The position numbers and the translations under genes are program-made. A stretch of 64,000 bases of DNA, taken from positions 7,996 to 71,995 of the forward strand of contig QMVG01000002.1 in NCBI GenBank assembly GCA_003660975.1. The letters run 5' to 3'. Below, in pieces: positions 3,970 through 39,068 of this stretch. Within the stretch, counting starts at the first letter, position 1. Every line of letters begins with the position of its first letter. The notes below the pieces were generated by a model. It was not told the origin of the DNA. It saw nothing but the letters and a program-made list of their open reading frames with translations, and ran no database searches. This stretch comes from Candidatus Micrarchaeota archaeon. Lineage in GTDB: Archaea; B1Sed10-29; B47-G15.

Positions 3970-4002
3970 AAGACTTTATTGTTGTTTTTACAATAAAAAG
4001 GC

Positions 4003-4425: not shown

Positions 4426-4676
4426 CTTATTAGCGTGACATCAAGGCTTTCCATTTCTCTTACTCCGGCAAGAGACCTTATCTTTTCCTCTGTTTCCTCC
4501 GGCTTATCTTTCTTGTCGTCAAAGAGGATGCCAACCTTTATCACTTCAAGGCCAAATGCAATTGGCTCTCTTTGCACGCTTTTTACTTTATCTATCTTAC
4601 TTATTTCGTCCACAAGCTGCGCTAAATCTGCATTTTCTTCAGGATATATTCTATACACTGCCATTGCCATTCCCAT
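4422..4676 (-). CDS. ef1b: Translation elongation factor aEF-1 beta
   Basis: The region AVYRIYPEE...VDEISKIDKVKSVQREPIAFGLEVIKVGILFDD...SLDVTLIS matches archaeal EF-1beta. The start is placed at the internal Met just after the upstream Zn-ribbon gene stop (the track ORF extends to 4715). Confidence 0.7.
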   Translation of the reverse strand: MGMAMAVYRIYPEENADLAQLVDEISKIDKVKSVQREPIAFGLEVIKVGILFDDKKDKPEETEEKIRSLAGVREMESLDVTLIS

Positions 4677-4684
4677 AACAACAC

Positions 4685-4840
4685 CTACGGACCAACAAAG
4701 CCACAAACAGGGCACGTGTACGGAACAACAGTTCTCTTACAGAGATCACACCTTACTATCTCTGCCTTGCCGCAGTTTGGACATTTGAACTTTACATAGT
4801 TGTCTGTAACTTCCCTGTTGCACGATGTACATCTTATCAT
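4685..4840 (-). CDS. Zn-ribbon protein (COG2888-like) conserved upstream of ef1b
   Basis: Not in the ORF track (51 aa). Reverse-strand translation gives MIRCTSCNREVTDNYVKFKCPNCGKAEIVRCDLCKRTVVPYTCPVCGFVGP, with four CxxC pairs. The Zn-ribbon to EF-1beta gene order is a conserved archaeal pairing. Confidence 0.55.
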   Translation of the reverse strand: MIRCTSCNREVTDNYVKFKCPNCGKAEIVRCDLCKRTVVPYTCPVCGFVGP

Positions 4841-4916
4841 AATTCCACCTCAAAAAGAAGCACTATTATTTCACATAGTCTTGTTTATAAACATTTTGGC
4901 ACATAAACTTTACTAT

Positions 4917-4988
4917 GCCCCTGTAGTTTAGCGGATAGAACGCAGGCTTGCGGAGCCTGTGACCCGAGTTCAAATCTCGGCAGGGGCG
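4917..4988 (+). tRNA. tRNA-Arg (anticodon GCG), no encoded CCA
   Basis: Cloverleaf folded by hand. Acceptor stem GCCCCUG/CAGGGGC, D-stem GUUU/GAAC, anticodon stem CAGGC/GCCUG with loop UUGCGGA (U33, anticodon GCG, G37). T-arm CCGAG-UUCAAAU-CUCGG, discriminator G. The 3' flank reads CTA, so CCA is not genomically encoded. Confidence 0.65.
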
Positions 4989-6266: not shown

Positions 6267-6300
6267 TAATAATTTATACTTCTGCTTACTATTTAACCTT

Positions 6301-22029: not shown

Positions 22030-22761
22030 ATGTCTGATTTGGTTTCTAAGTTAAAAACACTTGGTTTTACAGATTACGAAGCAAAAGCATACATTGCTCT
22101 AGTTAGCTCTGGGGCTGCTTCTGTGACTGAGATAAGTCAAATATGCGATGTGCCTCGTTCCAACCTTTACTCTGTTTTGGAAAAATTAAATGAAAAAGGT
22201 TTTGTTGAAATTCAACGCGGAAGGCCTATAATGTTTCAAGCAGTGAAACCCTCAAAAGCGTTAAATGAGCAAGTAGACAAGCTGACAAAAAGCATAGAAA
22301 AAGCGAAGAAGGAGGCAATAAAGGAACTGGAAGCCATGATAAAGTCAACACAGAAGAACATAGAACCTGCACTGATATGGGCAGTTAAGGGCAGCTCTGC
22401 TGTTACAACCAGGTTAGCAGAGATGATAAAGCGCTCTAGAAAGGAGGTTCTGATAAATACCCCTTCTCTCTCATTGCTGAATGAGAATGTCGTAAAAGCA
22501 ATAAAAGAAGCCTCTGAAAGAGGAGTGAAGATAAAAGTGGTCACTCAGTCAACAAGAGGAATAGAACTATTTAGAAAAATATGCATAGTGAGAAGCAGGG
22601 ATAAGATATATGGTCTTGATGCTGTGGTTGATGAGAGGGAAGTACTTGTCGCTCCTGCTATGCCTGCAATTGCTGTTTGGGTAGATAACCCCACGATGGC
22701 TGCTCATGTGAAGGATTTTCTCAACCTTGTTTGGAAGGACTCAAACATAATAGGCAAGTAG
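22030..22761 (+). CDS. TrmB-family transcriptional regulator
   Basis: N-terminal LGFTDYEAKAYIALVSSGAASVTEISQICDVPRSNLYSVLEKLNEKGFVE is the canonical TrmB wHTH. 243 aa with a C-terminal effector domain. Sits directly upstream of the pilus genes. Confidence 0.75.
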   Translation: MSDLVSKLKTLGFTDYEAKAYIALVSSGAASVTEISQICDVPRSNLYSVLEKLNEKGFVEIQRGRPIMFQAVKPSKALNEQVDKLTKSIEKAKKEAIKELEAMIKSTQKNIEPALIWAVKGSSAVTTRLAEMIKRSRKEVLINTPSLSLLNENVVKAIKEASERGVKIKVVTQSTRGIELFRKICIVRSRDKIYGLDAVVDEREVLVAPAMPAIAVWVDNPTMAAHVKDFLNLVWKDSNIIGK

Positions 22762-22797
22762 TAAATTCTTATAAACGAGTAGTGATTTCTTAACAAT

Positions 22798-24300
22798 ATG
22801 GACTATTTGAAGAAGCTTGTAGACAGTGCTAAAGACACAGGAGTAAATCAAGCATCTACCAAAAAGACACTAGTAGCAAGCTATGGAGATGTCAAAATAT
22901 ATAAGATAGAGGGAGAAGCGCTTCTTCTTTATACTGTTCCGGTTGTGAAGCCTACAGGTCCTGAGAGAGAAATCATAGACACTTTGAAAGAAGCAGCAAC
23001 ACGTTTAATAAGCATAAGTCCTGAAGAGATAAGAGACCCAAAGCTCATGAGAGACATATACACACAGAGAGTGAAGGAGATTATCGAGTCAAGCCCAGAA
23101 CTAGGCATACCAAAGACGCGATTTGACTTTTATGCTGAAATGGTCGTTAGGGAAATGATAGGATATGGTTATCTAGACCCCTTAATTCACGATGACAAGT
23201 TGGAGGAAATAATGGTTATAGGAGCGCAGAAACCTGTCTATGTCTTTCATAGGGATTATGACATGATGAAAACCAACATTGTTTTTAGCACTGACAGCGA
23301 GATATACAACTTAATTTCCAGGATTGCGATGGGAGTGGGAAGGCGAATTGACAAGCAAAACCCCATATTAGATGCCAGATTGCCTGATGGCTCTAGGGTG
23401 AATGCCACGATAAAGCCAATAAGCTTGAATGGCTCAACCATAACTATAAGGAAATTTAGAGAGGATCCGCTAACTGTAGTTGATTTGATAAATAATGGAA
23501 CCATGGACTCCTATTTAGCTGCTTTTCTTTGGCTGGCAGTTGATGGTCTTTACAGTAAGCCTGCCAACATCCTCGTTTCAGGTGGCACAGGTAGTGGTAA
23601 AACAACCACCTTAAACGTACTGGCCAGTTTTATCCCAAGAGAGGAAAGGGTGGTGACGATAGAAGACACTGCTGAGCTAAAGCTTCCAATAGAGCACATA
23701 GTGAGGTTTGAGACGCGTCCTCCAGGGCTTGAAGGCACAGGCGAAATAAGTATGGATGCCCTTGTCAAAAATGCTTTAAGGATGAGGCCTGATAGGATCA
23801 TAGTAGGCGAGATAAGGCACGCTGAGGCCTTCACGCTTTTCACAGCCATGAACACAGGACATCAGGGTTGCATGGGAACAGTGCACGCTAATGACGCTTC
23901 AGAAACGGTAATTAGGTTGACAAACCCACCAATGAGTGTTCCGAAGATTATGCTTACCGCGCTTGACTTGATAGTGGTTCAGAGCAGGATAAGAGACAGG
24001 AGAAAAGGCACAATAAGGAGAGTTACAGAACTTGCAGAGCTTACTGCTGTGTCCAATGAAGGCGACGTTCATTTACAAACGCTGTTTTCATGGGATCCTG
24101 TCTCAGATAGTATAAATCATATGAAAATCAACTCACACTATCTCAAAGAGCTATCCAGATATGCGGGTATGTCTGTTGATGACATTGAGCTTGAAATAGA
24201 GAAAAGGAAACAGGTTTTAGAAGAGCTTACATCCAAAGGGATTAGAGACCTTAAAACTGTGTCTACATATCTAAACCGTTTTGAGGTAAGTAATAAATGA
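22798..24300 (+). CDS. Type IV pilus assembly ATPase (FlaI/TadA/VirB11 family)
   Basis: LDARLPDGSRVNATIKP...TIRKF, Walker A VSGGTGSGKTTTLNVL, Walker B/Asp box RIIVGEIRHAEA, His box GTVHAN. 500 aa. Confidence 0.85.
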   Translation: MDYLKKLVDSAKDTGVNQASTKKTLVASYGDVKIYKIEGEALLLYTVPVVKPTGPEREIIDTLKEAATRLISISPEEIRDPKLMRDIYTQRVKEIIESSPELGIPKTRFDFYAEMVVREMIGYGYLDPLIHDDKLEEIMVIGAQKPVYVFHRDYDMMKTNIVFSTDSEIYNLISRIAMGVGRRIDKQNPILDARLPDGSRVNATIKPISLNGSTITIRKFREDPLTVVDLINNGTMDSYLAAFLWLAVDGLYSKPANILVSGGTGSGKTTTLNVLASFIPREERVVTIEDTAELKLPIEHIVRFETRPPGLEGTGEISMDALVKNALRMRPDRIIVGEIRHAEAFTLFTAMNTGHQGCMGTVHANDASETVIRLTNPPMSVPKIMLTALDLIVVQSRIRDRRKGTIRRVTELAELTAVSNEGDVHLQTLFSWDPVSDSINHMKINSHYLKELSRYAGMSVDDIELEIEKRKQVLEELTSKGIRDLKTVSTYLNRFEVSNK

Positions 24301-25409
24301 CAGAAATAAAGAAACTAAAAAAAATTTTGGAAGCCGAGGATAGGAAAGAGAAAGAGCAGTCGCCATACCTGAACAGACAGTTGCTTTCTAAGATAATAAA
24401 GAGGATGGAAAAAAAATATGAAAAGGAGGGACTTAGCACCCCTGATTATGCTGCAAGAGAAAAAAAAGCAGAAAAGCTTAAAGTAATCACAGGCTCTCCA
24501 AAGGAATTGCTCTTGTCAAAAAAGCCAATAGTAAGGTTTCTAATTAGCATATATATGTTATCTTCTCCAATCAGTTATTACCTTCTAACATTTCTTGAGA
24601 AAATTTTAGGCAAGAGCTTGGAAAAAGACCTTAAAGCTTCTGGCATGATGTATTCCCAGAAGCAATACCTTGCATTGACTATGTCGCTTGTGTTTATCCT
24701 GTGGGTTTCATTTTTAATCCCTCTGACAGCACTGACGCTGCTCTTTCATTTTTCTCTATTCTACCTGCTTCTTTCAGCCATTTTAATCCCTTTGCTTGCT
24801 TTTTCAATTGCATTTTTACTACCAAGCACAAGGGCCAGCAAAATAGCAAATGAGATTGACAAGGAGCTTCCATTTGCATTGAGACATATGAGCATACAAA
24901 TACGGGCTGGAGTTGGAATATACAATTCCATGGAGTCAATAGCTGTGTCTGATTATGGCTATTTGTCAAAAGGTTTCAAATTCGTTCTCAGCAATATCCA
25001 AAAAGGCATGCCAACTGAAGAAGCTTTAGAGTCGTGGGCATATATGACACGGTCAGAAGCCCTTCAAAGGGTTATAAGCCACATAGTTAGAGCTCTAAGA
25101 ACAGGCGGCAATCTCTCTGATATTATGCTAAGCATTTCAGAGGACATATCATTTGAAAGAAGAATGAAAATATCTGACTTTGCCGAGAAACTCAACCTCA
25201 TGGCTCTTTTTTTGATGATGGTGGCCATAGTAGTACCTGTTATGGTAGGCATACTGACTGCCATTGCATCAATGCCCTCTCTTAGCTCTTATGTAAATGT
25301 CTTTTCTATATTCTCACTAACTTTTCTGCAGTTGCTGTATTTTCTGATAAGCCCAAGCCTTATATTGCTCTTCCTTTACTTCATAAAGATCTCAGATCCA
25401 GGTGCTTGA
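24297..25409 (+). CDS. Pilus platform membrane protein, N-terminal T2SSF-domain half (TadB/FlaJ-like)
   Basis: Cytoplasmic K/E-rich N-terminus, TM helices, and a T2SSF-type soluble segment (LPFALRHMSIQIRAGVGIYNSMESIA). It ends at TGA 25407 to 25409, in the same frame as the next ORF. Confidence 0.65.
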   Translation: MTEIKKLKKILEAEDRKEKEQSPYLNRQLLSKIIKRMEKKYEKEGLSTPDYAAREKKAEKLKVITGSPKELLLSKKPIVRFLISIYMLSSPISYYLLTFLEKILGKSLEKDLKASGMMYSQKQYLALTMSLVFILWVSFLIPLTALTLLFHFSLFYLLLSAILIPLLAFSIAFLLPSTRASKIANEIDKELPFALRHMSIQIRAGVGIYNSMESIAVSDYGYLSKGFKFVLSNIQKGMPTEEALESWAYMTRSEALQRVISHIVRALRTGGNLSDIMLSISEDISFERRMKISDFAEKLNLMALFLMMVAIVVPVMVGILTAIASMPSLSSYVNVFSIFSLTFLQLLYFLISPSLILLFLYFIKISDPGA

Positions 25410-26264
25410 ATGAAGGCATTAGAAAAGTATCAAGAAATAGCCCATTTCGCAGGGATTTCACAGCCCTGGCTTTTGTTGGGAGGAAGTATTTCAATAGGCG
25501 CAATACTGTTTTTCCTTTTGTTGTCCTATGACCCAATACTCTCAGTGCTTGTATTACTTATCTCCTTAGATGTATCTTTCGGCCTGCCTTTTTTGCTCGC
25601 AAGTAGGAAGGTTGAGAAGATTGAAGACAGCTTGCCAGATGTATTGCAGCACATAAGCACCACACTGAAAGCAGGCTCCACAATAGAGATGGCTCTAAAG
25701 GAGGTCTCCTTAGTTGACTATGGCCCAATAAGCCAAGAGATGAAACGGATGCTGGACGAAATAAACAAAGGCAAGACATTTGAAGAGGCCTTCAACGACT
25801 TTGCTGAAAGTTCTCACTCAAAACTTGTTAAGAAGATTGCAATCATAATCTCAGCCGCAAGGCGAAGCGGTGGGGCTCTATTACAGACTTTGAGCCTCAC
25901 AGCAGAGGATATAAGAGCTGTTAACCGCTTGAGACGGGAGAGAAAAAGCAAAACACTTATGCAGTTCTTGTTTTTGATAGCAGCAAGCTCTATCGTAGCT
26001 CCTTTTATATTTGGCATAGTGCGGGCTGTTCTGTCAACACTTCTTTCAATAAGCCCTTTTACCAACACAGATACATTGCAAGCCTTTGATTTTACATTTA
26101 AGCTATTTCTGGTATTGCAAGGTACTCTTACAACTATTGGAGCTGTTATGGTGAAAGAAGGCAAATTAGAAAAAAGTGCGCTTTACATCCCATTTTCTCT
26201 CTTCTCTATTTACGTGATATACAGCCTCGTGTCTGTCCTCTTTATGTCTTTAATAGGTGTTTGA
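25410..26264 (+). CDS. Pilus platform membrane protein, C-terminal T2SSF-domain half (TadC/FlaJ-like)
   Basis: Second T2SSF-like segment (LPDVLQHISTTLKAGSTIEMALKEVS) flanked by TM helices. Its ATG immediately follows the in-frame TGA of the upstream half. Confidence 0.65.
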   Translation: MKALEKYQEIAHFAGISQPWLLLGGSISIGAILFFLLLSYDPILSVLVLLISLDVSFGLPFLLASRKVEKIEDSLPDVLQHISTTLKAGSTIEMALKEVSLVDYGPISQEMKRMLDEINKGKTFEEAFNDFAESSHSKLVKKIAIIISAARRSGGALLQTLSLTAEDIRAVNRLRRERKSKTLMQFLFLIAASSIVAPFIFGIVRAVLSTLLSISPFTNTDTLQAFDFTFKLFLVLQGTLTTIGAVMVKEGKLEKSALYIPFSLFSIYVIYSLVSVLFMSLIGV

Positions 26265-26571
26265 TATGAAAGCCCAAACTGCTATGGAATACCTAGTCCT
26301 GACAGCTGTTGTGTTGACCATTGTAACTGTTGTAAGTTATATGATACTTACGGCATCAAAAGCAAGTGGTCAGACAGCCTCAGAGATGACCTGCAGGGCA
26401 ACAGCCTCCTCATATAAGTTAGCTATAATGGCAGACCCAAATGCCTGCGATGCAGAATGCGAAAAGGCCTGCGAAAAAGCCTGCGTGGACAGCAATGGCT
26501 ATGATGTAATTGGAGGCGAAAAAGGTTGCGGAACAGGTTGTCAGGCTTGCAAAAGCGGGACATTGCATTAA
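26257..26571 (+). CDS. Class III signal peptide (type IV pilin-like) protein, Cys-rich
   Basis: MKAQTAMEYLVLTAVVLTIVTVV is a K-A|Q prepilin-type N-terminus followed by a hydrophobic helix. The C-terminal domain carries 10 Cys, including CDAECEKACEKAC. The true start is probably the Met of MKAQ. Confidence 0.55.
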   Translation: MFDMKAQTAMEYLVLTAVVLTIVTVVSYMILTASKASGQTASEMTCRATASSYKLAIMADPNACDAECEKACEKACVDSNGYDVIGGEKGCGTGCQACKSGTLH

Positions 26572-26594
26572 TCTTTTTATAGAACAATGCTCTT

Positions 26595-26921
26595 ATGTTC
26601 TCTGGTGTTATCATGAAGGCACAGGGCTCACTTGAATACCTAATCATATTAGCAGCTGTATTGGCAATAGGAGCTATAGTGGTTTTGTTTGTGACAGATG
26701 CTTTTAGCCAGACAAAAACAGCTGCGAGCGTTGAGAATTGTAGAAATGCACTTACAAAAGTATATCAAGAATACAAACTTCACGGGTCTGTTGCCAAAGA
26801 CATTTCGGACAGCTGCTATGAAATCTGCAAGGATTTCGTTTATGCATCCTCACCAGCAACAGACTTTTGTGATGGGGAAGGTTTGACAGAAGACATAATA
26901 AACCACATAAGCCAATCCTAA
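26595..26921 (+). CDS. Class III signal peptide (pilin-like) protein
   Basis: MKAQGSLEYLIILAAVLAIGAIVVL prepilin-like N-terminus with 4 Cys in the globular part. The true start is probably the Met of MKAQ. Confidence 0.55.
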   Translation: MFSGVIMKAQGSLEYLIILAAVLAIGAIVVLFVTDAFSQTKTAASVENCRNALTKVYQEYKLHGSVAKDISDSCYEICKDFVYASSPATDFCDGEGLTEDIINHISQS

Positions 26922-26953
26922 TCGTTAAATATTCTTTTTGATACTATTCTCCT

Positions 26954-27904
26954 ATGTATGCTTTTCTAGCATTTGCACTGTTGCTTACAGCAAGCTATTT
27001 TGACTTAAAGGATAGGAGAATACCTCCCACGCTAAGCTACTCATTCATCTTGATTGGACTCACAGCCCACCTATTAGAAGGAATATCTCTCCAATATATC
27101 TATATCGTGTTTGCCTCTTTTTTCTTTGCCTACGCACTTTATAAGTTTGGGGTGTGGGCAGGGGGAGACTTCAAACTATTCGTGGCGCTTTCCCTCCTAC
27201 TGCCCACATACAAATCTATTGACTTCTTTTCATTTTATGTGCTGTTTTTTGCTGTGCTTGCCGTTCTGCCTTTTCTACTTGTATTTTTTGCGTACAAGCT
27301 TTTTCTTTCGAAAGAGTTCAGGAGAGGGGCGAAGGCAAAAGCTAAATCATGGCTAAAGCGTTCACTTTTTATCGCTATAATCGCTACAGCCTCTTATGAA
27401 CTTTCATCATTTTTCACATTGCCTCCTGAGTTATCTGTGCTCTTCTTTTTCATGCTTTTCTTGCTTAAGCAAAGTGGCTCTTTCATTGCTGTAGTTTTTC
27501 TATTAAACAGCATAATCAGAAATCCATCATATGTCTTAACAGTCATTTACTTGTTTTTAGTTTCCCTGCTTATTTCCATAGCTATCTACTCATTTAAGGT
27601 TTTGAGAAAAACTGTTCTCAGAAAAAAGCTGCCCATAGCCAAGATAAAGGAAGGCATGATACCTGCCCAGCACTTAATAAAGAAGGGAAAGAGGTATTAT
27701 CTAAAAGAAGCAGAATGGCGCGACTTATTCCATAAAGATAATATCGTGATAGACTCTATGAAGGCCAGAGGGCTGAACAGGGATGAAATCCTATTGATTA
27801 AGAAATCAGGCATAAAAGAAATAGAAATAAAGAAGTCACTTCCTTTTGTCCCCTTCATGTGCCTGGGATTTGTTCTAGCTCTCCTTAGTTTATTTATATT
27901 TTGA
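26954..27904 (+). CDS. Prepilin/preflagellin peptidase (A24 family, PibD/FlaK-like)
   Basis: Polytopic membrane protein with the two catalytic Asp contexts (YFDLKDRRIP and VWAGGDFKLF). It sits inside the pilin array. Confidence 0.6.
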   Translation: MYAFLAFALLLTASYFDLKDRRIPPTLSYSFILIGLTAHLLEGISLQYIYIVFASFFFAYALYKFGVWAGGDFKLFVALSLLLPTYKSIDFFSFYVLFFAVLAVLPFLLVFFAYKLFLSKEFRRGAKAKAKSWLKRSLFIAIIATASYELSSFFTLPPELSVLFFFMLFLLKQSGSFIAVVFLLNSIIRNPSYVLTVIYLFLVSLLISIAIYSFKVLRKTVLRKKLPIAKIKEGMIPAQHLIKKGKRYYLKEAEWRDLFHKDNIVIDSMKARGLNRDEILLIKKSGIKEIEIKKSLPFVPFMCLGFVLALLSLFIF

Positions 27905-27919
27905 CTGCCTTATTCTATC

Positions 27920-28087
27920 ATGGATGACAGGGCCCAGGTAAGCACGGAGTATCTAATAATACTCGCAGTGTCTTTGGTTCTAGCAGCAGTTGTGACTCTT
28001 TTAACAGTGAACCTCTTTAGCGTGAAGTCATCCGTGAAGGAATTGATAGAAATATACTACAAACGCGCCTTGCAACTGGTGACTTAA
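27920..28087 (+). CDS. Minor pilin-like protein (55 aa, class III signal peptide)
   Basis: Not in the ORF track (<60 aa). Sequence MDDRAQVSTEYLIILAVSLVLAAVVTLLTV..., stop TAA. Tandem with the next gene. Confidence 0.5.
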   Translation: MDDRAQVSTEYLIILAVSLVLAAVVTLLTVNLFSVKSSVKELIEIYYKRALQLVT

Positions 28088-28255
28088 ATGGATGATTGCG
28101 CACAGGTTTCAATAGAATATATGTTCACAGCAGCTATTTTTCTTATAATTGCAGCCATTCTATCTGTTTACGTAGAGAGGATATTTGCAATGAAAGACAC
28201 GATTTTCAAGACAAACAGCATATATTCAAAATCACTCTCAAACCTATTAAAGTGA
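28088..28255 (+). CDS. Minor pilin-like protein (55 aa, class III signal peptide)
   Basis: Not in the ORF track. Sequence MDDCAQVSIEYMFTAAIFLIIAAILSVYV..., stop TGA. Paralogue of 27920 to 28087. Confidence 0.5.
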   Translation: MDDCAQVSIEYMFTAAIFLIIAAILSVYVERIFAMKDTIFKTNSIYSKSLSNLLK

Positions 28256-28259
28256 TATT

Positions 28260-28640
28260 ATGAAAGCTCAGCTGACATTGGAATACCTTATTATTTTTGT
28301 AATCTTACTGCTACTGTTTTCAAATGTTTCTATGGATTTAATGGGTTCTTCAATGAGCTCTGCCCTGCAGATACAGAAGCAACAGATAATGAAAGCAGCC
28401 AATCTCTCTTTAGAGTCAGCTGCATCCAAGCTTCAGTATCAGGGAGAAGGGGCCAGGATATTAGTAAAGATAAGAGCAGCACCTGATTGCAATTACATAT
28501 TTGAGGAGAAAAGAGCATACGCTGAATGCAGGAGCGGAACTTATGATATAGGTCCAAATCCTTTACCAGCTGATTTGGTGTACTCTGAAAAGACAATAAA
28601 GGAGAATGAGTTGGATGTTGTTGAAATTAGTAAAGAGTAA
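28260..28640 (+). CDS. Class III signal peptide (pilin-like) protein
   Basis: MKAQLTLEYLIIFVILLLLF N-terminus, 126 aa. Confidence 0.55.
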   Translation: MKAQLTLEYLIIFVILLLLFSNVSMDLMGSSMSSALQIQKQQIMKAANLSLESAASKLQYQGEGARILVKIRAAPDCNYIFEEKRAYAECRSGTYDIGPNPLPADLVYSEKTIKENELDVVEISKE

Positions 28641-28962
28641 GGGACAGCTTTCAATTGAACTTTTGTTTATCATTTCAATACTGATTCTCCTATGCTCATC
28701 CATAACACTGGACGCATTGGCCACTTCATCACGAATGTTTGACATATCACACGTTAAAGACGCTGTAAATACTTATCTTTACAAAAAAGGCATTGAAGAC
28801 AAAGCATGCCTTTCAATGAGGCTTTCTGCGTTGTCAGTAAAGCAAAATACAGTTTACGTCAGGATAGATGGAGACAAAAGCTGCAAGCCTAGCTCTGATG
28901 AACTGCTTTATTTAATAAAAAAAGAAAACCCTTCTTTTGCGCTTTCCGTGGAGGTGATTTAA
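28606..28962 (+). CDS. Class III signal peptide (pilin-like) protein
   Basis: KSKGQLSIELLFIISILILL prepilin-like segment near the N-terminus. 118 aa. The start is uncertain. Confidence 0.45.
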   Translation: MSWMLLKLVKSKGQLSIELLFIISILILLCSSITLDALATSSRMFDISHVKDAVNTYLYKKGIEDKACLSMRLSALSVKQNTVYVRIDGDKSCKPSSDELLYLIKKENPSFALSVEVI

Positions 28963-29499
28963 TTGGAATGGACTAAAACTAATGTTATTATACTGCTTCA
29001 GTCAGCAGTCCTATTCGCTGTCATTCTCGCAGTAGTTGCGAGTTTTTTGTCAGAACCATTTTTACTGCTTCTGGACATGGTTAGCTTGATTATGCTTGGT
29101 TATGGCCTTTGCTTAGTATATAAAAATTGGAGAAAGGAGTTCAAAACATATGCATTGCTTTTCAGTGTTCTCTTTTTTATAACAGTAGCTTTCCCAATTT
29201 TGATAATATCCAAATTTATAAACAGTTTCAATACCTCTTTATTACTTCTCTTTTTGCTGCTTTTCTATTTTATCTTGAAGGCTTATTTGACACCAAAGCA
29301 GCTGGAAGGTATAGTAGTAATGGCAGACAAAGAGAGAGCAGTGGTGCATATAGATTACAATATCCTTTTGTCATTACCTGCAGGGGATTATGTTGTCAGA
29401 AATAATGGAGCCAAGAAGGGACATAAAGTTCTGCTGTCTTATAAAAAGAGCATATTCAGGACTGTAAAGCCAGAAGCCGTGATCAAGGTGATAAAATGA
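28963..29499 (+). CDS. Membrane protein (about 4 TM) with small C-terminal soluble domain, embedded in the pilin array
   Basis: Four hydrophobic helices, then a roughly 70-aa beta-rich-looking tail (GIVVMADKERAVVHIDYNILLSLPAGDYVVRNNGAKKGHKVLLSYKK). No family recognised. Confidence 0.4.
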   Translation: MEWTKTNVIILLQSAVLFAVILAVVASFLSEPFLLLLDMVSLIMLGYGLCLVYKNWRKEFKTYALLFSVLFFITVAFPILIISKFINSFNTSLLLLFLLLFYFILKAYLTPKQLEGIVVMADKERAVVHIDYNILLSLPAGDYVVRNNGAKKGHKVLLSYKKSIFRTVKPEAVIKVIK

Positions 29500-29870
29500 A
29501 GAAGGGCATGTTTAGCATAGATTTTATTATGGCCCTTGTGATAGTTAGCTTTGTAGTTTTCTTTATACAAGAGCATACATATAGGAGTTTGAGACACAGC
29601 GAAGAGTTTGGAAGATTGGAGCAGCTCTCAAGCATGACATCTTCTGTTGCATCTCAGCTAAATGCTTTTTATGCCCTATCACCAGAAAAGGGAGACTTCT
29701 TTAATTTATTACCCCCTAAAATAAGCAGTTTCAGCAGAACCCAGGATTGCACTGTCTTGAAATACGCTTCGTCTCTGACACTTAGTTGTGGAGATTCTTC
29801 CCTCTCCTTTCCACTTTGTTTTGACGATGCATCTTACGAGGTTGGTGAAAAGGCGGTTGAGAAGGTATGA
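29496..29870 (+). CDS. Pilin-like protein
   Basis: MKKGMFSIDFIMALVIVSFVVFFI N-terminus, which is K-G followed by a hydrophobic helix. 124 aa. Confidence 0.45.
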   Translation: MKKGMFSIDFIMALVIVSFVVFFIQEHTYRSLRHSEEFGRLEQLSSMTSSVASQLNAFYALSPEKGDFFNLLPPKISSFSRTQDCTVLKYASSLTLSCGDSSLSFPLCFDDASYEVGEKAVEKV

Positions 29871-30268
29871 AAGCACAGATATTTTCATTGGACGCCATGC
29901 TTGCCATTGTAGCTCTTACAGTTATCGTGGGCTATTTTTCGTGGTCCCTTGAGAATACATTACATAGCGCAGATATTTCGGAGTATGAGAGCTTGCAGCG
30001 TATGGCAGATGATTGGGCACAGCTGGCTGTTAAAAGAATCTTGGCGCAAAGAGACGAACCAAATAAGGTAGACAGCTCAAGGCTTAGTGATCTTGCAGCG
30101 CAGATGTCAGAACTGCTTGTTTCACCATATGACTTTGAGCTGCATCTTGGCAATTCTAAGCTGGGTGGGGACTGCAGTTCAAAGCAAAATGTGGTTTCTG
30201 TCAGGCGATTGGTTTATGACAAGGACTCAGCAGAAGGGAAAGTATTTGAATTGAGGTTATGTGTATGA
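29867..30268 (+). CDS. Class III signal peptide (pilin-like) protein
   Basis: MKAQIFSLDAMLAIVALTVIVGYF N-terminus. 133 aa. Confidence 0.55.
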   Translation: MKAQIFSLDAMLAIVALTVIVGYFSWSLENTLHSADISEYESLQRMADDWAQLAVKRILAQRDEPNKVDSSRLSDLAAQMSELLVSPYDFELHLGNSKLGGDCSSKQNVVSVRRLVYDKDSAEGKVFELRLCV

Positions 30269-30564
30269 AAGGCTTGCTCTTTAGCGTTGATTCGGTGTTG
30301 GCATTGTTGCTGTTGTTTGTAATTAGCTCAACATATCTTGTTATGCTGGAAGTGCAGGAAAAAAACAAAGACAACGTTTTGATGCTTAGCAGGTTGGCAA
30401 GAGACATAATAGACATAAGGTATTACCAGCCTTCATATTCGCCGCCAGACTGGCTAAAAGAGGAAAACTGCCAGCACAATGTGGTTTCTCTGGACTATTT
30501 TGTTTACGATAGCAGCTCTAATAAGGTAATTAAAAAAACTCAAAAGGTGTGCTTCAATGAATAG
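30259..30564 (+). CDS. Pilin-like protein
   Basis: MKGLLFSVDSVLALLLLFVISSTYLV N-terminus. 101 aa. Confidence 0.45.
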   Translation: MCMKGLLFSVDSVLALLLLFVISSTYLVMLEVQEKNKDNVLMLSRLARDIIDIRYYQPSYSPPDWLKEENCQHNVVSLDYFVYDSSSNKVIKKTQKVCFNE

Positions 30565-31036
30565 GGCCTTCGTTATCTCCTCATCTGTCTTCATTCTGCT
30601 GTTAGCCAGCTTATTTCTCATAAACTTTATTATGCTGACCTCTACATACCAGTCATCTGCTGATGAAAGGAAGCTGATGCTGGATTCCCTTTACAATGTT
30701 TTAACAGATGCAAAGCGCCTCTTATTCTACGCAGGAGAGAATGTGCTTGATGATGCTGTGGCGGACCATATAGGACACTGCCCTAAAGACGCGATTCTTG
30801 AGGCATGGGTAGATAACGCATTGCAAAACAGCATTGCAGAAATGAACAGCTTTTTGAGAGATAAAAACATAAGGCTTAGCTTATCCTATGACGGGCCCTT
30901 TGTCAGTAAAACTGGGCTGTGCTCTTATAAGGTGAGCTTAACAAATGTTAAAATTACTGCTGTTAAGCAGATGGGAGACATAACAGAAGCAAAGCTCAGC
31001 CACAGTTTGCCAGACATAAACAGGAATTATCCTTGA
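30557..31036 (+). CDS. Pilin-like or pilus-associated secreted protein
   Basis: N-terminal hydrophobic helix (FVISSSVFILLLASLFLINFIM), 159 aa. Translationally coupled to the upstream gene. Confidence 0.4.
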   Translation: MNRAFVISSSVFILLLASLFLINFIMLTSTYQSSADERKLMLDSLYNVLTDAKRLLFYAGENVLDDAVADHIGHCPKDAILEAWVDNALQNSIAEMNSFLRDKNIRLSLSYDGPFVSKTGLCSYKVSLTNVKITAVKQMGDITEAKLSHSLPDINRNYP

Positions 31037-31090
31037 CTAACCTATAACCGTTGGTAAATTCTTAAAAAAATAACGAAAAACAAACGTAGC

Positions 31091-31423
31091 ATGCGGCTTT
31101 TAACAGGCGTTTATATGCTGACTGCATTGTTTTCCTTATCTCTTATCTACTTTTTCTCACCCCAGCTTTCATACAAGGCAGTTAGTGCTGAGGAGCTTTA
31201 CAGCAACTGTGAAGGCAGCGTGCAGGCAACTGTTCTTCTTCAAGATGTCTTCATATCAAAAAATGGAAACCGAATAGGTATCGTGTCAGATAGCCCTCGC
31301 ACTTTTGTGCTGCTCAATGATATTTACGCCACAAAAGGGGACCGCTTGCTGTTGAAAGCCAGAGCCTCTCGCTTTAGAAAGGCCTGTTGGCTTTTTCCTG
31401 AAAAGGTGAAATGGCTTGATTGA
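31091..31423 (+). CDS. Hypothetical secreted protein (last gene of pilin array)
   Basis: N-terminal signal or anchor (LLTGVYMLTALFSLSLIYFF). 110 aa. Confidence 0.35.
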   Translation: MRLLTGVYMLTALFSLSLIYFFSPQLSYKAVSAEELYSNCEGSVQATVLLQDVFISKNGNRIGIVSDSPRTFVLLNDIYATKGDRLLLKARASRFRKACWLFPEKVKWLD

Positions 31424-32902: not shown

Positions 32903-34080
32903 AGCAGATAATATATCTTCTCTTGGACGGTCTCGGTGATTATTCTTATGCAGAGTTAGGCATAAAAACACCCTTAGAATATGCTAACACTCCCTTCTTT
33001 GACTCTCTTGCCTCAGGAGGAAAAGAGGGGCTTATAGTACCAACAGGTCTTGGAAGGGAAATCTTGATGGAAAACGCCTCTCTCATGCTTTTCAGCGATC
33101 TTGGTTATGACTTGAGGACCTTTCCTCATGCAAGAGGCATTATTGAGGCTGTTGGCCATGGCTTTGATGTTAAAGATGGTGAGCTGTGGGCAAGAACTAA
33201 TTTTGCTACTGTTGATGAGAATTGGGTATTGATAGACCTTAGGGCAGGTAGAATCTCCCAGACAGAGGAACTGGTAAAGGCAGTGAACGAAATCCAAATG
33301 GATGTGGAGTTTCATTTCTATGGCACTCAGGTATATAGGGGCCTCCTTGTTTTTAGGGATGACAAAGCGCTGTCTGATGAAATAACAGGCGTTGACCCGC
33401 ACATGCCCGGGAAGAAAGTAATGATGGCAAAGGCTTTGAAGCCAGAAGCAAAGCGCTCAGCTGAACTGATAAATGATTTTATGAAAAAGGCTTATGAGGT
33501 GTTAAAGCAGCATCCAATTAACATTGAACGAAGAGAGATGGGCTTGCCTGAAGCCAACTTTATTCTGCCAAGGGGAATTGGTTCAAAACTTCCCCACTTA
33601 CAGCCTTTTGAGGAAAGGCATAACTTAAAGGCGGTCTCAATTACTGGCATAAATGTCAATAAGGGCATATCTAAGTTATTGGGGATACCTATATGGGAAG
33701 TGCCTGAAGAAATAGGAGAAAAGGAATATGAAGTTAAAAGAGAGCCTATTCTAAAAGCCATTGACCAAGGCTATGATTTTATATCAGTACATGTGAAGCC
33801 AACAGATGACGCTGGTCACGATGGCGATGTGCATAAAAAGGTTAGGGAGATTGAAAGGGCAGACGCTTTCTTCTCTTCCTTAGAGCTTGATGATGTGCTG
33901 TGGGCGATATACGCAGACCACTGCACTCCTTGTTTCATAAAGGCACATTCTAATGACCTAATACCCTCTTTGATATCTTCTAAAAAAGCATCTGGGAGGC
34001 AGTTTGCCGAGAAATATTGTACTGATTATACAGTTCAAGCATACGATTTTATCAAACTCGCTTTAAAGGAAGCGCGTTAG
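32899..34080 (+). CDS. apgM: 2,3-bisphosphoglycerate-independent phosphoglycerate mutase, archaeal type
   Basis: 393 aa. LLDGLGD near the N-terminus and the C-terminal metal-binding DAGHDGD...YADHCTP are consistent with the archaeal iPGM (ApgM) family. Confidence 0.75.
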   Translation: MKQIIYLLLDGLGDYSYAELGIKTPLEYANTPFFDSLASGGKEGLIVPTGLGREILMENASLMLFSDLGYDLRTFPHARGIIEAVGHGFDVKDGELWARTNFATVDENWVLIDLRAGRISQTEELVKAVNEIQMDVEFHFYGTQVYRGLLVFRDDKALSDEITGVDPHMPGKKVMMAKALKPEAKRSAELINDFMKKAYEVLKQHPINIERREMGLPEANFILPRGIGSKLPHLQPFEERHNLKAVSITGINVNKGISKLLGIPIWEVPEEIGEKEYEVKREPILKAIDQGYDFISVHVKPTDDAGHDGDVHKKVREIERADAFFSSLELDDVLWAIYADHCTPCFIKAHSNDLIPSLISSKKASGRQFAEKYCTDYTVQAYDFIKLALKEAR

Positions 34081-35831
34081 ACTGAGTAATAATATCTACC
34101 TGATTTTCTTTGTTCTATATCCTTCTGGGAGCCTTTTTTGTTTATCCTTGGCCTGCCAGTGCTCGGGTCTCTTCTGAATGTAATCTCCATCATCTTGAGG
34201 AAGTCATTCATGCCTTCTTCCATTGCTTTTGCTCTTTTCGCTCTTCCGTATCGCCCAGGCTTTCCCTCAAAATTTATAATCCTGTTTGAAACAGCATCTA
34301 TGAAGATTATGTCATGGTCTATAACCATCGTCGCTTCTTCCTTCTTTTCACTTACCCTTTTTATCAGCTCTGCCAATCTCAGGCGTTGCTCTATATCTAG
34401 GAAGGCGCTAGGCTCGTCTAATAGACAAAGGTCTGCGCGCTTAGCCAGCGTTAAGGTTATTGCCAACCTTTGCAGTTCGCCTCCAGACAGGTTTTCCAAT
34501 TCCTTCTCCATTAAATCTTCAACAGTGTTCCTCATCAAACTGTTGAACAGCTCCATGTCAATATCTTGATTTCTTATAAAGTCCATAACCTTCACGTGTC
34601 CGCTCGCTTTCACATACTGAGGCTTATACGCTATCCTTAATTTTAACCCTGGCTCTCCCTCTGTAGTTTTTTCAATGCCAGCAAGCACTTTAAAGAAGGT
34701 TGACTTTCCAATTGCATTAGGTCCTAATATGCCTATGCACTCTCCTCTTTTGATTTCGCCCCCTTCTACCTCCAAAGTAAAACCAGGATAATCTTTCCTA
34801 AAAGCACCATATTCAAACATCTCTTTATTTTTCCACTCCTCCGCAGGAGGCCTTGGAGGGAAGCTAATGCTGTAATCCCTTATCCTTATGTTCTCTGCCT
34901 TCAAAAAGCCGTCCAAGAACTCGTTTATGCCTGCCCTTGATGTTTTTAATCCAGAAACAACACCATACACTCCAGGTTCACCAAACAGTATATGCACATA
35001 GTCTGTCAAATAGTCAAGTATTGCCAGATCATGTTCAACAATAAATACTGTTTTGTCTTCGCCTAACCTCCTTAAAAGCTTCGCGACCTTTATTCTTTGT
35101 CTTACATCTAGATAAGAGCTTGGCTCATCAAAAAAGTAATAATCGGCCTCCTTCATCATAGTAATCGCTATAGCCAGCCTCTGTAGTTCTCCACCACTGA
35201 GCTCTGAGACCTTTCTTTTCCTCGCCTCTTCCAACTCAAACAACGATATGTACTCATCTAAGACTCCTTTTTCATCTGCAACTTTTAAGACATCCCCCAC
35301 AACTTTGTCTCTCCTGCCCTCAAAAAAGGCATCTATATCCTGTGGCTTGTAAGATAACTTAGCTTTTTTCTCACTTAGCGCTTTCAAGTAACCATGAATC
35401 TCATGGCCTTTTAGCTCTGCCAGAATCTCGTCCCATGAAGGAGCATTGTCATGGTGGCCTAAATTTGGTTTTATTTCTCCTGCCAGTATCCTCACAAGCG
35501 TGCTCTTTCCAATACTGTTTCTACCTACGATCCCTATGACAGCCTTTTTCGGTGAAGGCAGATTATACAACCTAAAGCTATTCTTTCCGTATTGGTGGAT
35601 TATCTGTCCCAGCTCTTCTGCTGTGTTTATTATCTTTATAGCTTTGTAGGGGCATTTCTTAGGACATATGCCACAGCCAGTGCATAACAGTTCATTTATT
35701 ATTGGGTATCCATCCTCCCCCTGCACTATGGTTTCATCGCCCATTCTTACGCCAGGACATACAGAAATACAAATATAGCCACATTTCTTCGGAGAACATT
35801 TTTCCCTGTCAATCACAGCAATCCTGACCAT
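34077..35831 (-). CDS. abcE1: ABCE1/RLI ribosome-recycling ABC ATPase
   Basis: N-terminal 4Fe-4S ferredoxin-like Cys clusters (CGYICISVCPG...CTGCGICPKKCP) followed by two ABC ATPase domains (GRNSIGKST...LSGGELQR; GPNAIGKST...LSGGELQR). Confidence 0.85.
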   Translation of the reverse strand: MVRIAVIDREKCSPKKCGYICISVCPGVRMGDETIVQGEDGYPIINELLCTGCGICPKKCPYKAIKIINTAEELGQIIHQYGKNSFRLYNLPSPKKAVIGIVGRNSIGKSTLVRILAGEIKPNLGHHDNAPSWDEILAELKGHEIHGYLKALSEKKAKLSYKPQDIDAFFEGRRDKVVGDVLKVADEKGVLDEYISLFELEEARKRKVSELSGGELQRLAIAITMMKEADYYFFDEPSSYLDVRQRIKVAKLLRRLGEDKTVFIVEHDLAILDYLTDYVHILFGEPGVYGVVSGLKTSRAGINEFLDGFLKAENIRIRDYSISFPPRPPAEEWKNKEMFEYGAFRKDYPGFTLEVEGGEIKRGECIGILGPNAIGKSTFFKVLAGIEKTTEGEPGLKLRIAYKPQYVKASGHVKVMDFIRNQDIDMELFNSLMRNTVEDLMEKELENLSGGELQRLAITLTLAKRADLCLLDEPSAFLDIEQRLRLAELIKRVSEKKEEATMVIDHDIIFIDAVSNRIINFEGKPGRYGRAKRAKAMEEGMNDFLKMMEITFRRDPSTGRPRINKKGSQKDIEQRKSGRYYYSV

Positions 35832-35882: not shown

Positions 35883-36152
35883 TTAAAGCACGAGCAACAT
35901 TATGCCTATCAATATCATAATTACTGCCAGAATTAATATACCGCCCTCAATTGCCGTTACTACGGCGTTTATAAGTCCCTCCAGTGTCCATACACCGTTG
36001 CTCATGAAGCCGAAGTGGAGCATTGCCACTAACAATATTAAGCCAACAACAAGCGAAGCCACGCCGAACTTGTCCACCTTCATTGTTTTCACCACCTTTT
36101 TATAGAGAGAACTATATTTAAAAACGTTTTCATATAATAAAGCCATGCTCAT
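35883..36152 (-). CDS. Hypothetical small membrane protein
   Basis: 89 aa with two hydrophobic helices. No family recognised. Confidence 0.3.
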   Translation of the reverse strand: MSMALLYENVFKYSSLYKKVVKTMKVDKFGVASLVVGLILLVAMLHFGFMSNGVWTLEGLINAVVTAIEGGILILAVIMILIGIMLLVL

Positions 36153-37170
36153 ACTGTACAGGAAGGATAATCAGATTAAACTTAGGGTTCAAAGCTTGGA
36201 AGACCTCTGGCATTTGGAAAAGATAATCAGAAAGGGGGACAGGGTCTCCTCCCTTACTACAAGAAAATTCGTTGCAGATTCAGGAAGCCAGGAGAGAAAG
36301 AAGCTTTTTATCAAGATAGCAGTAGAGAAGCTCAGCTTTCACAGAGACATGTCAAAGCTGCGTATTTTGGGAAGCATAGTTGAAGCACGCCCAGAGGAGT
36401 TAGCCCAAATAGGGCAGCACCACAGTATTGATATTGGTGTTGGCGATGAGCTAACAGTAGAAAAGGACAGATGGACCAATTACGAGCTTGCAAGATTGAG
36501 GGAAGCTGAAAAACATGGCAAAAGAGAAAAGTTATCCGTGCTAACGATAGATGACTCATCAGCGCAACTTTTCCACATCTTAGGTTATGGCTTAAAAGAA
36601 GCTGGGGAAGTTCATGCTAGAGGGCTGCGAAAATACAGGCAGGTTTCGGATAAGGCGAGGCAAGATTACTACAACGATATCTATCAGCTGATTTCCTCTG
36701 TTGATAAGTTAATAATAACTGGCCCTGGCTTTGAGAAAGACAGATTCAGGAAGTATCTAGAAGAAAAAGGAAAGGCAACAAAAATTATGTTCGAGAAAAG
36801 CAGTTCTACTGGCAAATCAGCTGTTGCTGAGCTGATAAACAAGGGAGTCATAGACAAAATTATGCGTGATTCCAGGCTGGTAAAAGAAAATAAGGCGGTT
36901 GAAGAGTTTGTTTCTTCGTTGGCCAAGGGCAGAGCAATATACGGGGAGAAAGAAGTTATAAATGCCTTAAAGTCAGGAGCTGTTGCGAAATTGCTTATTC
37001 TTGATGAGCTACTTTTTACTCACAGGGAAAAGATAGATATGCTGTCTGAATTAGCTTCCAGAACAGGGACTGAACTGCTGTTTATAAGCCGTGAGAACGA
37101 GGCATCGGAGAAAGTGAAGGCATTTGGCGGAATTGTCGGGATTTTGCGCTTTTCCCTAAGTAAATCATAA
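36145..37170 (+). CDS. pelA: Pelota/Dom34 (mRNA surveillance, aRF1-like)
   Basis: 341 aa. N-terminal MLILYRKDNQIKLRVQSLEDLWHL, an eRF1-like central domain and a C-terminal domain. It is flanked by ABCE1, its functional partner. Confidence 0.8.
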   Translation: MLILYRKDNQIKLRVQSLEDLWHLEKIIRKGDRVSSLTTRKFVADSGSQERKKLFIKIAVEKLSFHRDMSKLRILGSIVEARPEELAQIGQHHSIDIGVGDELTVEKDRWTNYELARLREAEKHGKREKLSVLTIDDSSAQLFHILGYGLKEAGEVHARGLRKYRQVSDKARQDYYNDIYQLISSVDKLIITGPGFEKDRFRKYLEEKGKATKIMFEKSSSTGKSAVAELINKGVIDKIMRDSRLVKENKAVEEFVSSLAKGRAIYGEKEVINALKSGAVAKLLILDELLFTHREKIDMLSELASRTGTELLFISRENEASEKVKAFGGIVGILRFSLSKS

Positions 37171-37193: not shown

Positions 37194-39068
37194 ATGGTTG
37201 TTATGAAAAAGAAAGCCTTGTTGATTCTTTTGATTTTTAGCCCAGTTGTAAACGCCATCGCGCTTAATATAGTCCCACAAGTGTTAAACAATACCATAGG
37301 CAATGTTTCTTTGGTTTTCTTCAACGATGAGAATATCAGCATATCGCAGTTATACTTCAATTCAAGTGACATAGCGATATCATCAGTGTCCGAAGACAAT
37401 TGTTTGCTTTCAACATTTTCATTTAACTGTGATATTGATGTAAAGCCGTCTTCCCAACATTCTCTTTCTTTCACTTACATGGCGAATGCAGGCCAACACA
37501 ATGCGAGCATAACCCTTGAAGACCTGTCTTCAAGGCGATTTGTTTTTAATAAATCCATAGTCGTTGACTTGGATAGACCAATTATGGCCAAGGTAGAAGT
37601 TGAATATCCCCCTGGCTACTTGGCTGCAAAAACAGGAACAGTTGTTATATTAAAAGCTTTCGTGGTTGATGCGACGAGTTATGTAAAAAAGGTAGTGGTT
37701 GATGCCGCTCCCATAGGCTGCGGCGAGCTTCAGTTGAGCAAGGGAGTTAGTTATTGGTCAGGCATTTGTAAGGTGGAGGCTAAGGATGGGGTTAAAATTC
37801 TGAAAGCAATTGCTTACGATGCCGCAGGAAATAAAGAAGAAAAGAACTTTCAAGTGATAATAGACAACAGTCCTTCAAAGATAAACTTAATTCACTTCAA
37901 GCAAGCTTCACGGATAGGCGAGACAGTTACATTTACATTTAATTTAAGCGAGAAGGGCACAAGCATTAAAGATGTTGTGATTGACATGTCTGAGCTGGGC
38001 TGCCCTGTCAAGCACCTTGAAGCAAGCGATGCTGTCTATTCCAGTTCATGCACTGTGGTTTCAGGAGAAGGCCATTATAATATTAGCATAGATGCTTATG
38101 ATTACGCCGGCAATGTGGAGAGAAAGCTTATAGATTTCTTCGTTGACAATCATCCTCCACAAATAAATAGTGTAGAGCTTAAGTATACAGGAAAGCAAAA
38201 GGCTGCAAAACAAGGAGACACTATTCACATCTTAGTTAACGCCAATGATTCTCTAAGTGGTGTTTCAAAGGTAATTCTACAGCAAAACAGCGTTTGTAGT
38301 GCTAACTTCTCATATGAAAAAGGAGTGTGGGAAGGGCTTTGCACAGTTGAGGAAAAAAAGAGTGGCAATTACAAAATCATGCTTTTGGCTTATGACCAAG
38401 CAGGCAATGTCGTTAATGAGAGTATCAATATATCAATAGACAATGACGTTCCAGAAAGCCTTGAAATAGAGATGTTCAATAGCACACATCCCATTAACAA
38501 TTTGAAGAACGGAGACATACTGTCCTTTGTTATCTCTGCTTATGACAGTCAGTCAGGCATTCAGTCAGTAAGGGTTTATGGTCAGGGAACTGGTTGCGAT
38601 GCTACTTTAAACTATGCTAACGGCTATTGGAGCGGCTTCTGCAAGGTTCACAGGGCTTCTATGGGGCCTGCCTCCATTGCAATTATAGCATATGATTACG
38701 CCAATAACAGCATTTCACACAGCATTGACATCAACATAAATGACAGCTTCTGCGACAAAATCTGTGACATTGGATACAGATTAAACTACAGCACCTGCAC
38801 TTGTGAAAAAATGGCATGTAACAAGATATGCCCTCGCGGCTTCAATCTTAACAGGGAGTCATGCACCTGCGAGGCTCCAAAGGTTTGCAATAAAAAATGC
38901 AAAGAAGGGGAAAAATTGAACACTCAAGATTGCGTTTGCGAAAAAGTTAAGGCAGAGGAAACAGATTATACATGGGTTTTGTATCTGGGGGTCATAGTTG
39001 TTTTGCTTGTTCCATTAACCTTTGCGTTGAACTCAAAAATGATAAATTCCTTGAAAAAATACGACTAA
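37194..39068 (+). CDS. Large surface protein with tandem Ig-like repeats, C-terminal Cys-rich CxCE repeats and C-terminal TM anchor
   Basis: Signal peptide (MVVMKKKALLILLIFSPVVNA). At least four roughly 100-aa repeats ending in AYD(A/Y/Q)AGN(K/V).... A C-terminal fourfold repeat C(T/V)CE...CNK(I/K)C. A terminal hydrophobic helix (YTWVLYLGVIVVLLVPLTFAL). Confidence 0.5.
   Translation: MVVMKKKALLILLIFSPVVNAIALNIVPQVLNNTIGNVSLVFFNDENISISQLYFNSSDIAISSVSEDNCLLSTFSFNCDIDVKPSSQHSLSFTYMANAGQHNASITLEDLSSRRFVFNKSIVVDLDRPIMAKVEVEYPPGYLAAKTGTVVILKAFVVDATSYVKKVVVDAAPIGCGELQLSKGVSYWSGICKVEAKDGVKILKAIAYDAAGNKEEKNFQVIIDNSPSKINLIHFKQASRIGETVTFTFNLSEKGTSIKDVVIDMSELGCPVKHLEASDAVYSSSCTVVSGEGHYNISIDAYDYAGNVERKLIDFFVDNHPPQINSVELKYTGKQKAAKQGDTIHILVNANDSLSGVSKVILQQNSVCSANFSYEKGVWEGLCTVEEKKSGNYKIMLLAYDQAGNVVNESINISIDNDVPESLEIEMFNSTHPINNLKNGDILSFVISAYDSQSGIQSVRVYGQGTGCDATLNYANGYWSGFCKVHRASMGPASIAIIAYDYANNSISHSIDININDSFCDKICDIGYRLNYSTCTCEKMACNKICPRGFNLNRESCTCEAPKVCNKKCKEGEKLNTQDCVCEKVKAEETDYTWVLYLGVIVVLLVPLTFALNSKMINSLKKYD

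Follow-up and report, generated by a model that had tools for sequence, protein, structure and literature searches.

How should a pilus platform be read when a single in-frame TGA, with nothing before or after it, divides its coding sequence in two? This question is raised by a 64,000-nucleotide (nt) stretch of contig QMVG01000002.1 (positions 7,996 to 71,995 of the forward strand; assembly GCA_003660975.1) from a Candidatus Micrarchaeota archaeon, hereafter the window, in which two open reading frames (ORFs) for platform proteins of a type IV pilus meet at a TGA at positions 25407-25409. A sequence-only reading of the window had left four options open: a real split of the bacterial style with initiation at the ATG that follows, a recent nonsense mutation that is turning the gene into a pseudogene, read-through of the stop codon and a sequencing error. 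The comparative data presented here favour the first of these and disfavour the other three. We conclude with high confidence that the TGA is a genuine stop codon under selection, which ends the first of two neighbouring platform genes in a type IV pilus operon of the Epd/Tad type, and nothing that we found contradicts this conclusion.

Two complete platform genes meet at the stop codon

Read directly from the window sequence, positions 25395-25418 are GAT CCA GGT GCT TGA ATG AAG GCA, and the two ORFs that adjoin here are as follows.

24297..25409, + strand: platform gene 1, 370 residues, one T2SSF domain, ending ...ISDPGA before the stop TGA at 25407-25409
25410..26264, + strand: platform gene 2, 284 residues, one T2SSF domain, beginning MKALEKY..., with its ATG abutting the gene 1 stop

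The two genes have a common reading frame and a spacer of 0 nt, as the sequence-only reading had described, and the existing annotation lists their products as separate hypothetical proteins (DRN74_01635 and DRN74_01640). Each half matches the Pfam T2SSF model (PF00482) once and across all 125 of its positions, with 69.7 bits (3e-19) for half 1 and 71.8 bits (6.7e-20) for half 2; both lie above the gathering score of 25.2 bits, which served as the cut-off for T2SSF membership. In both halves, the domain is flanked by hydrophobic segments of 19 residues (helices), which bears out the earlier description of one T2SSF domain plus transmembrane helices per half. The product of gene 1 carries a charged N-terminal extension of ~75 residues.

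Predicted structures agree with these domain assignments. AlphaFold models of the two halves had a mean predicted local distance difference test score (pLDDT) of 80 for half 1 and 86 for half 2. In Foldseek comparisons, the cytoplasmic domain of half 1 matched EpsF/PilC with a probability of 1.0 and a target-normalised TM-score of 0.71-0.77, and half 2 matched EpsF with a probability of 1.0 and a target-normalised TM-score of 0.78; overall, the structural matches of the halves were EpsF, OutF and PilC domains, with target-normalised TM-scores of 0.71-0.78. Sequence and profile searches of the PDB with each half returned a weak match to an EpsF domain and nothing else. By domain score and by fold, both halves belong to the T2SSF/PilC/TadC platform superfamily (PF00482).

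The split is conserved while the junction varies

To assess the conservation of this arrangement, we scanned one genome per GTDB species and found 80 loci, mostly in bins of Micrarchaeota and Iainarchaeota (Diapherotrites). Junction statistics were drawn from 77 analysable related loci and the window, that is, 78 loci. The platform is encoded by two genes in 78 of 78, so by the comparison that the sequence-only reading had itself proposed, of fused versus split orthologues, this is a genuine two-gene system. No fused protein was found among the homologues of half 1 (n = 88, 199-419 residues, the full-length ones 344-419) or among those of half 2 (n = 28, 271-334 residues). Gene 1 ends at a common conserved C-terminus in the 78 loci, reading ..SDPG in Micrarchaeota and ..QP[KR]V in Iainarchaeota; within the conserved ...SDPG terminus of the gene 1 product, P368 is invariant, and Met1 of gene 2 forms an invariant column in the alignment of homologues. 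Gene order is likewise stable: the ATPase gene stands directly upstream of gene 1, the order ATPase, platform 1, platform 2 is kept in 79 of 81 loci, and a peptidase homologue is found no more than 4 kb further downstream in 60 loci; downstream sequence of more than 3 kb is available for 63 loci.

The spacer between gene 1 and gene 2 has a median of 4 nt and ranges from -4 to 168 nt, with 66 of 78 junctions at 12 nt or less. Gene 1 is terminated by TGA in 38 loci, by TAA in 31 and by TAG in 9. Of the 78 second genes, 25 keep the frame of gene 1, 32 are shifted to +1 and 21 to +2, and the same-frame share fits the expectation of one-third (binomial p = 0.90). The nearest two relatives, with 59% and 56% protein identity and with junctions that read ..GATCCAGGTGTTTAAATG and ..GACCCGGGTGCTTAAATG, also have the zero-spacer in-frame geometry, but with TAA in place of TGA; the terminal codon of gene 1 has thus been altered and yet is still a stop. 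The shared frame at the window junction is a coincidence, one that happens twice more in the same operon. The possibility that the common frame survives from the mutation that first caused the fission was considered and rejected, given that frames and spacers vary freely across the family, although the zero-spacer in-frame geometry is common to the three closest genomes.

Two of the contigs bear labels from other groups. One assigned to 'Candidatus Falkowbacteria bacterium' (L039) and one assigned to 'Thaumarchaeota archaeon' (L067) carry a DPANN-type ATPase/platform 1/platform 2 locus with 32-33% identity to the window, and these are probably mis-binned contigs rather than cross-domain transfers.

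A candidate ribosome-binding site within gene 1

The sequence-only reading had suggested looking for a ribosome-binding site ahead of the downstream ATG, and such a motif is present.

25399..25402, + strand: Shine-Dalgarno (SD)-like GGTG (context cc-AGGTG-cttga-ATG), within the gene 1 codons for Gly and Ala and 5 nt ahead of the gene 2 ATG

Archaeal 16S rRNA has a conserved 3' end to which GGTG and AGGTG are complementary. Scored by a simple pattern between -18 and -4 of the start, an SD-like motif precedes gene 2 in 56 of 78 junctions, compared with a background of ~10% at random positions. Within the window, the motif stands before 22 of 70 crude gene starts, and a similar GGTG precedes the starts at 26266, 28088, 28963, 29496 and 30557. 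In almost all cases, GGTG or AGGTG falls within the codons that end gene 1 (..DPG-A/V in Micrarchaeota, ..QP-K/R-V in Iainarchaeota; loci L014-L080 and the window). This pattern suggests a dual constraint, in which the same nucleotides encode the C-terminus of the gene 1 product and provide the ribosome-binding site of gene 2.

A mechanism of expression can be proposed from these features. Gene 2 would be translated from its own ATG directly after the gene 1 stop, with SD-assisted initiation coupled to the termination of gene 1. Ribosomes that end gene 1 would re-initiate at gene 2, or new ribosomes would be recruited there, translational coupling being the most likely course. Such coupling would provide matched amounts of the two platform proteins. 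In the predicted pilus machine, these would presumably associate in the membrane below the ATPase as a two-chain equivalent of the single-chain platform.

The halves are colinear with the repeats of fused platforms

Half 1 and half 2 are paralogues, with 28% identity and an hhalign probability of 99.7%. Half 1 occupies positions 33-247 of the NCBIfam UpsF model and half 2 positions 271-437; half 2 can also be aligned to the C-terminal region of the NCBIfam FlaJ model. By the window proteins, the UpsF and FlaJ models are matched over only half their length, with scores far under the cut-offs. The defining feature of a single-chain platform, two T2SSF repeats in one polypeptide, was not found in the window or its relatives, all of which have a stop between the repeats.

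We also searched a half 1 profile against 1.84 billion representative proteins. The ~110 best matches, from 556 down to ~180 bits, are all single-stretch proteins of ~340-480 residues. Fused proteins (558-706 residues, with two matched stretches) appear only from ~180 bits downward, compared with 556 bits for the best split match, and in these the half 1 profile finds its best match in the N-terminal repeat. Other archaeal bins supply the nearest fused platforms with two T2SSF domains, which are possible outgroups for dating the fission. In two of these loci (L085 and L086), the fused gene adjoins an ATPase gene, and no pilin or peptidase gene is present among its called neighbours. The L085 protein (P0220; 564 residues, L085 positions 4001-5695) was used for a repeat-by-repeat comparison by BLASTP. 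Half 1 scored 64 bits against its N-terminal repeat and 49 bits against its C-terminal repeat, whereas half 2 scored 54 bits against the C-terminal repeat and 35 bits against the N-terminal repeat. The match of half 1 to the N-terminal repeat includes the end of that repeat, ..IKYATPA in P0220 versus ..IKISDPG in half 1.

The halves are therefore arranged like the N- and C-terminal repeats of fused platforms, a pattern that would be expected from an ancient fission between the repeats and not from tandem duplication of a whole gene. As judged from these alignments, the two platform genes appear to be ancient paralogues, the products of an old gene fission rather than of a recent mutation.

Weighing the alternatives

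A single new TGA in a single-chain, two-domain platform gene would leave two ORFs in frame with nothing between them, just as is seen in the window, and the original fission could have arisen by such a mutation (PMC6668835). As a recent event that has left a pseudogene in the making, however, a nonsense mutation is extremely improbable: the stop falls at the same conserved C-terminus in every one of the 78 loci, in two DPANN lineages and down to ~30% identity, no fused homologue occurs among the best profile matches, each half is full-length, keeps a conserved core and has a confidently predicted fold, and a conserved Met begins gene 2. Any nonsense event is ancient and fixed. We give no more credence to a false stop introduced into a single gene by sequencing or assembly. 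The genome is metagenome-assembled and single-base errors do happen in such genomes, but the contig has a coverage of 27x in ENA, and over 2313 nt that include the TGA and the adjoining ATG it agrees at 100% identity with a Logan assembly made from another run accession (SRR14699971). A further contig, from the Joint Genome Institute (JGI; L082), begins with the GA of the stop, 2 nt before the ATG, and confirms only the last two stop bases. An error is also at odds with a split that is universal among relatives.

Programmed or leaky read-through of the TGA would yield a fused platform of 655 residues besides or instead of the two proteins. TGA is generally the leakiest stop codon, and the in-frame, zero-nucleotide spacer would make the fusion colinear, like the ancestral single-chain platform. 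We nevertheless regard read-through as very unlikely. The frames of the orthologues are random (25/32/21), and since the frame varies among them, a fused read-through product cannot be under selection; moreover, at this position the closest relatives carry TAA. Neither of the marks of recoding, a stop conserved together with its downstream frame and retention of a specific stop codon, was found. TGA is also the commonest terminator in the window, where the stops of 70 crude gene calls comprise 30 TGA, 25 TAA and 15 TAG, and the genes ending in TGA include lrp, the ATPase and the prepilin peptidase. The earlier remark that TGA serves as an ordinary stop here, for example in lrp, is thereby upheld, and global recoding of TGA is rejected, this codon being the most frequent terminator of the well-supported genes of the window. 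An Rfam scan of the window returned one tRNA, a tRNA-Arg, and no recoding element. Incidental read-through in trace amounts may occur, but nothing suggests a function for it. It is similarly very unlikely that, here and in the two closest relatives, the zero-spacer in-frame geometry lets a small share of the ribosomes read through and make a covalently fused minor isoform that restores the ancestral single chain and has a role of its own, or, in a milder version, that the last residues of platform 1 are dual-coding, with an SD-like constraint and an obligatory 1:1 coupling.

The case for two genuine, separately initiated genes has some limits. The simple pattern found no SD-like match in 22 of 78 junctions, and with the 3' end of the 16S rRNA lying outside the window, the proposed anti-SD pairing draws on what is generally known of archaeal 16S rRNA. 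The ENA and Logan assemblies, compared at the assembly level, may come from one environmental population. Finally, it is from comparison that we infer the absence of a read-through product in this genome.

The pilus operon and its surroundings

The two platform genes lie within a compact cluster of pilus genes, whose other members are listed below.

22030..22761, + strand: transcriptional regulator of the TrmB family, first gene of the pilus cluster (Pfam TrmB 1e-23, Regulator_TrmB 4e-11)
22798..24300, + strand: pilus assembly ATPase (T2SSE, FlaI/TadA-like), 500 residues (Pfam T2SSE 1.6e-52)
26266-26571 and 26595-26921, + strand: two class III signal peptide pilin genes (Pfam Class_IIIsignal, PF04021, 2.4e-6 and 1.2e-6)
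26954..27904, + strand: large prepilin peptidase, 316 residues (Pfam Peptidase_A24 8.8e-12; Arc_PepC, an archaeal C-terminal domain, 5e-6)
27920..31036, + strand: closely packed small genes for pilin-like proteins, many of which have ..AQ/GQ...E near the N-terminus, together with a gene for a DUF2101 membrane protein (from the ORF list and junction table)

The regulator gene ends 36 nt upstream of the ATPase gene, which in turn stops at a TGA within a 4-nt overlap (ATGA) with platform gene 1. NCBIfam models for FlaI and for the TadA family both match the ATPase, in each case under the cut-off. Junctions throughout the cluster are tight. ATGA overlaps occur at 24297, 29496 and 29867, and the genes between 27920 and 31036 are joined with 0 nt between them or with overlaps of 4-10 nt, apart from one overlap of 35 nt; in the crude gene set, 21 of 48 same-strand junctions across the window have spacers of 5 nt or less. 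Besides 25409/25410, the operon has two further zero-spacer in-frame junctions, at 28087/28088 and 28962/28963. At the former, TAA is followed by ATG between tandem pilin paralogues of 55 residues (27920-28087 and 28088-28255). At the latter, TAA is followed by TTG between a pilin-like gene (28606-28962) and the gene for the membrane protein with the DUF2101 match (ORF 28963-29499). Both junctions are preceded by GGTG.

The predicted pilins encoded at 26266 and 26595 begin MKAQTAMEYL and MKAQGSLEYL, an EppA-type signal (KA|Q...E, with Gln at +1 and Glu at +5). At least six ORFs downstream of the platform genes start with ..(K/R)(A/G)Q...E, further examples being DRAQVSTEY and MKAQLTLEY. Gln at +1 and Glu at +5 are the signature of EppA peptidase substrates in Epd pili (PMC4371748), and candidate pilins of this type encoded in one operon with a putative dedicated large peptidase are what an Epd-like/Tad locus would be expected to contain. 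No second ATPase of the TadZ/MinD-like or FlaH/KaiC-like type was found among the Pfam-scanned genes of the operon (22030-31423), several small ORFs there having been left unscanned; the TadZ/FlaH-type component is frequently encoded at other genome sites (PMC4858521).

Several other genes of the window may be mentioned. A second, orphan ATPase of the T2SSE family (6169-7821, + strand, 550 residues) has no adjoining platform gene, and its convergent neighbour (7769-9292, - strand) encodes a protein of 507 residues with a signal sequence and a membrane anchor but no Pfam match. A few kb downstream of the pilus operon, the gene at 37194-39068 (+ strand) encodes a protein of 624 residues with immunoglobulin-like domains (Big_13, DUF7743), which may be a surface protein or adhesin. 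An ABCE1/RLI gene (34077-35831, - strand) is divergent from a gene at 36145-37170 (+ strand) for a protein of 341 residues with eRF1 domains 1-3, which by its length would be Pelota-like; the two genes are a ribosome-rescue/recycling pair. The ORF at 48635-49420 (+ strand), which shares 8 nt with the end of an upstream glycosyltransferase gene, has only NFACT-R_1 and the tail of NFACT_N, and its 261 residues are short for an NFACT/Rqc2-type protein.

Relation to known platforms

Split platforms have been described before. Epd-like archaeal pili and bacterial Tad pili each have two homologous platform genes with one T2SSF domain apiece, derived by fission (PMC6668835), and two TadC components occur in clade 1 and many clade 2 euryarchaeal pili (PMC4858521). 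In Methanococcus maripaludis, epdJ and epdK are both essential for piliation (PMC4371748). Archaeal systems with such a gene pair, Epd-like and clade 2 pili among them, are regarded as the source from which Tad inherited its split (PMC6668835, PMC4858521, PMC4371748). The statement in the sequence-only reading that archaeal platforms are normally one two-domain chain thus holds for FlaJ, UpsF and AapF but not for the Epd-like (EpdJ/EpdK) and many clade 2 pili (PMC6668835, PMC4858521, PMC4371748). Two contiguous single-T2SSF platform genes, the hallmark of split platforms of the Epd-like/Tad kind, are present in all of the loci compared here.

Among the closest parallels are the Epd (EppA-dependent) pilus of M. 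maripaludis (EpdJ/EpdK, ATPase EpdL, peptidase EppA) and the Epd-like archaeal type IV pili, which share with the window two adjoining one-T2SSF platform genes, class III pilins with Gln at +1 and Glu at +5, a large dedicated A24 peptidase and a single FlaI/TadA-like ATPase. The window differs in that its host is a DPANN archaeon (Micrarchaeota) and not a methanogen, in that a single compact operon encodes the ATPase, both platforms, the pilins and the peptidase, with the ATPase gene followed by platform 1 and then platform 2, and in that no FlaH/KaiC-like or TadZ-like second ATPase was seen among the scanned operon genes. Architecture, pilin signals and peptidase type together point to an Epd-like grouping of the locus, a classification made at the level of sequence.

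In bacterial Tad/Flp (type IVc) systems, TadB and TadC (CpaG/CpaH) are likewise adjacent, paralogous membrane proteins with one T2SSF domain each, encoded right after the ATPase gene (tadA-tadB-tadC), and their split has been interpreted as the fission of a two-repeat ancestor (PMC6668835). Unlike those systems, the window locus has no secretin, TadZ or other bacterial envelope component. Sequence similarity to bacterial proteins is too weak for a half-by-half assignment to TadB and TadC, and in searches of PLSDB plasmids by tblastn half 2 had no match and half 1 had one weak actinobacterial match. The earlier labels of TadB-like for half 1 and TadC-like for half 2 were not confirmed and may have to be swapped. 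In PMC6668835, the best alignment of TadC is to the N-terminal repeat and that of TadB is to the C-terminal one, so half 1, as the N-terminal repeat, would be the TadC-like protein. The single-chain platforms FlaJ/ArlJ, UpsF, AapF and PilC/GspF share with the window the T2SSF helical-bundle cytoplasmic domain and colinear repeats, but have two T2SSF repeats in one chain, whereas the window encodes separate proteins, the first of which has the extra charged N-terminal region of ~75 residues.

The practical consequence of these findings is one of annotation: DRN74_01635 and DRN74_01640 are best annotated as separate platform genes of the Epd/Tad type, neither a pseudogene nor a recoded gene, and otherwise the TGA matters little. 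The window is a further example, from the DPANN archaea, of a published kind of split platform, and the modest addition made here is that the split is uniform in a large set of Micrarchaeota and Iainarchaeota bins. In these lineages, the pattern comprises an ATPase gene, an N-repeat gene and a C-repeat gene, with very tight junctions and an SD-like motif inside the upstream coding sequence, and it is compatible with selection for coupled, equimolar synthesis of the two platform proteins. The DPANN loci may also provide extra archaeal outgroups for studies of the origin of TadB and TadC.

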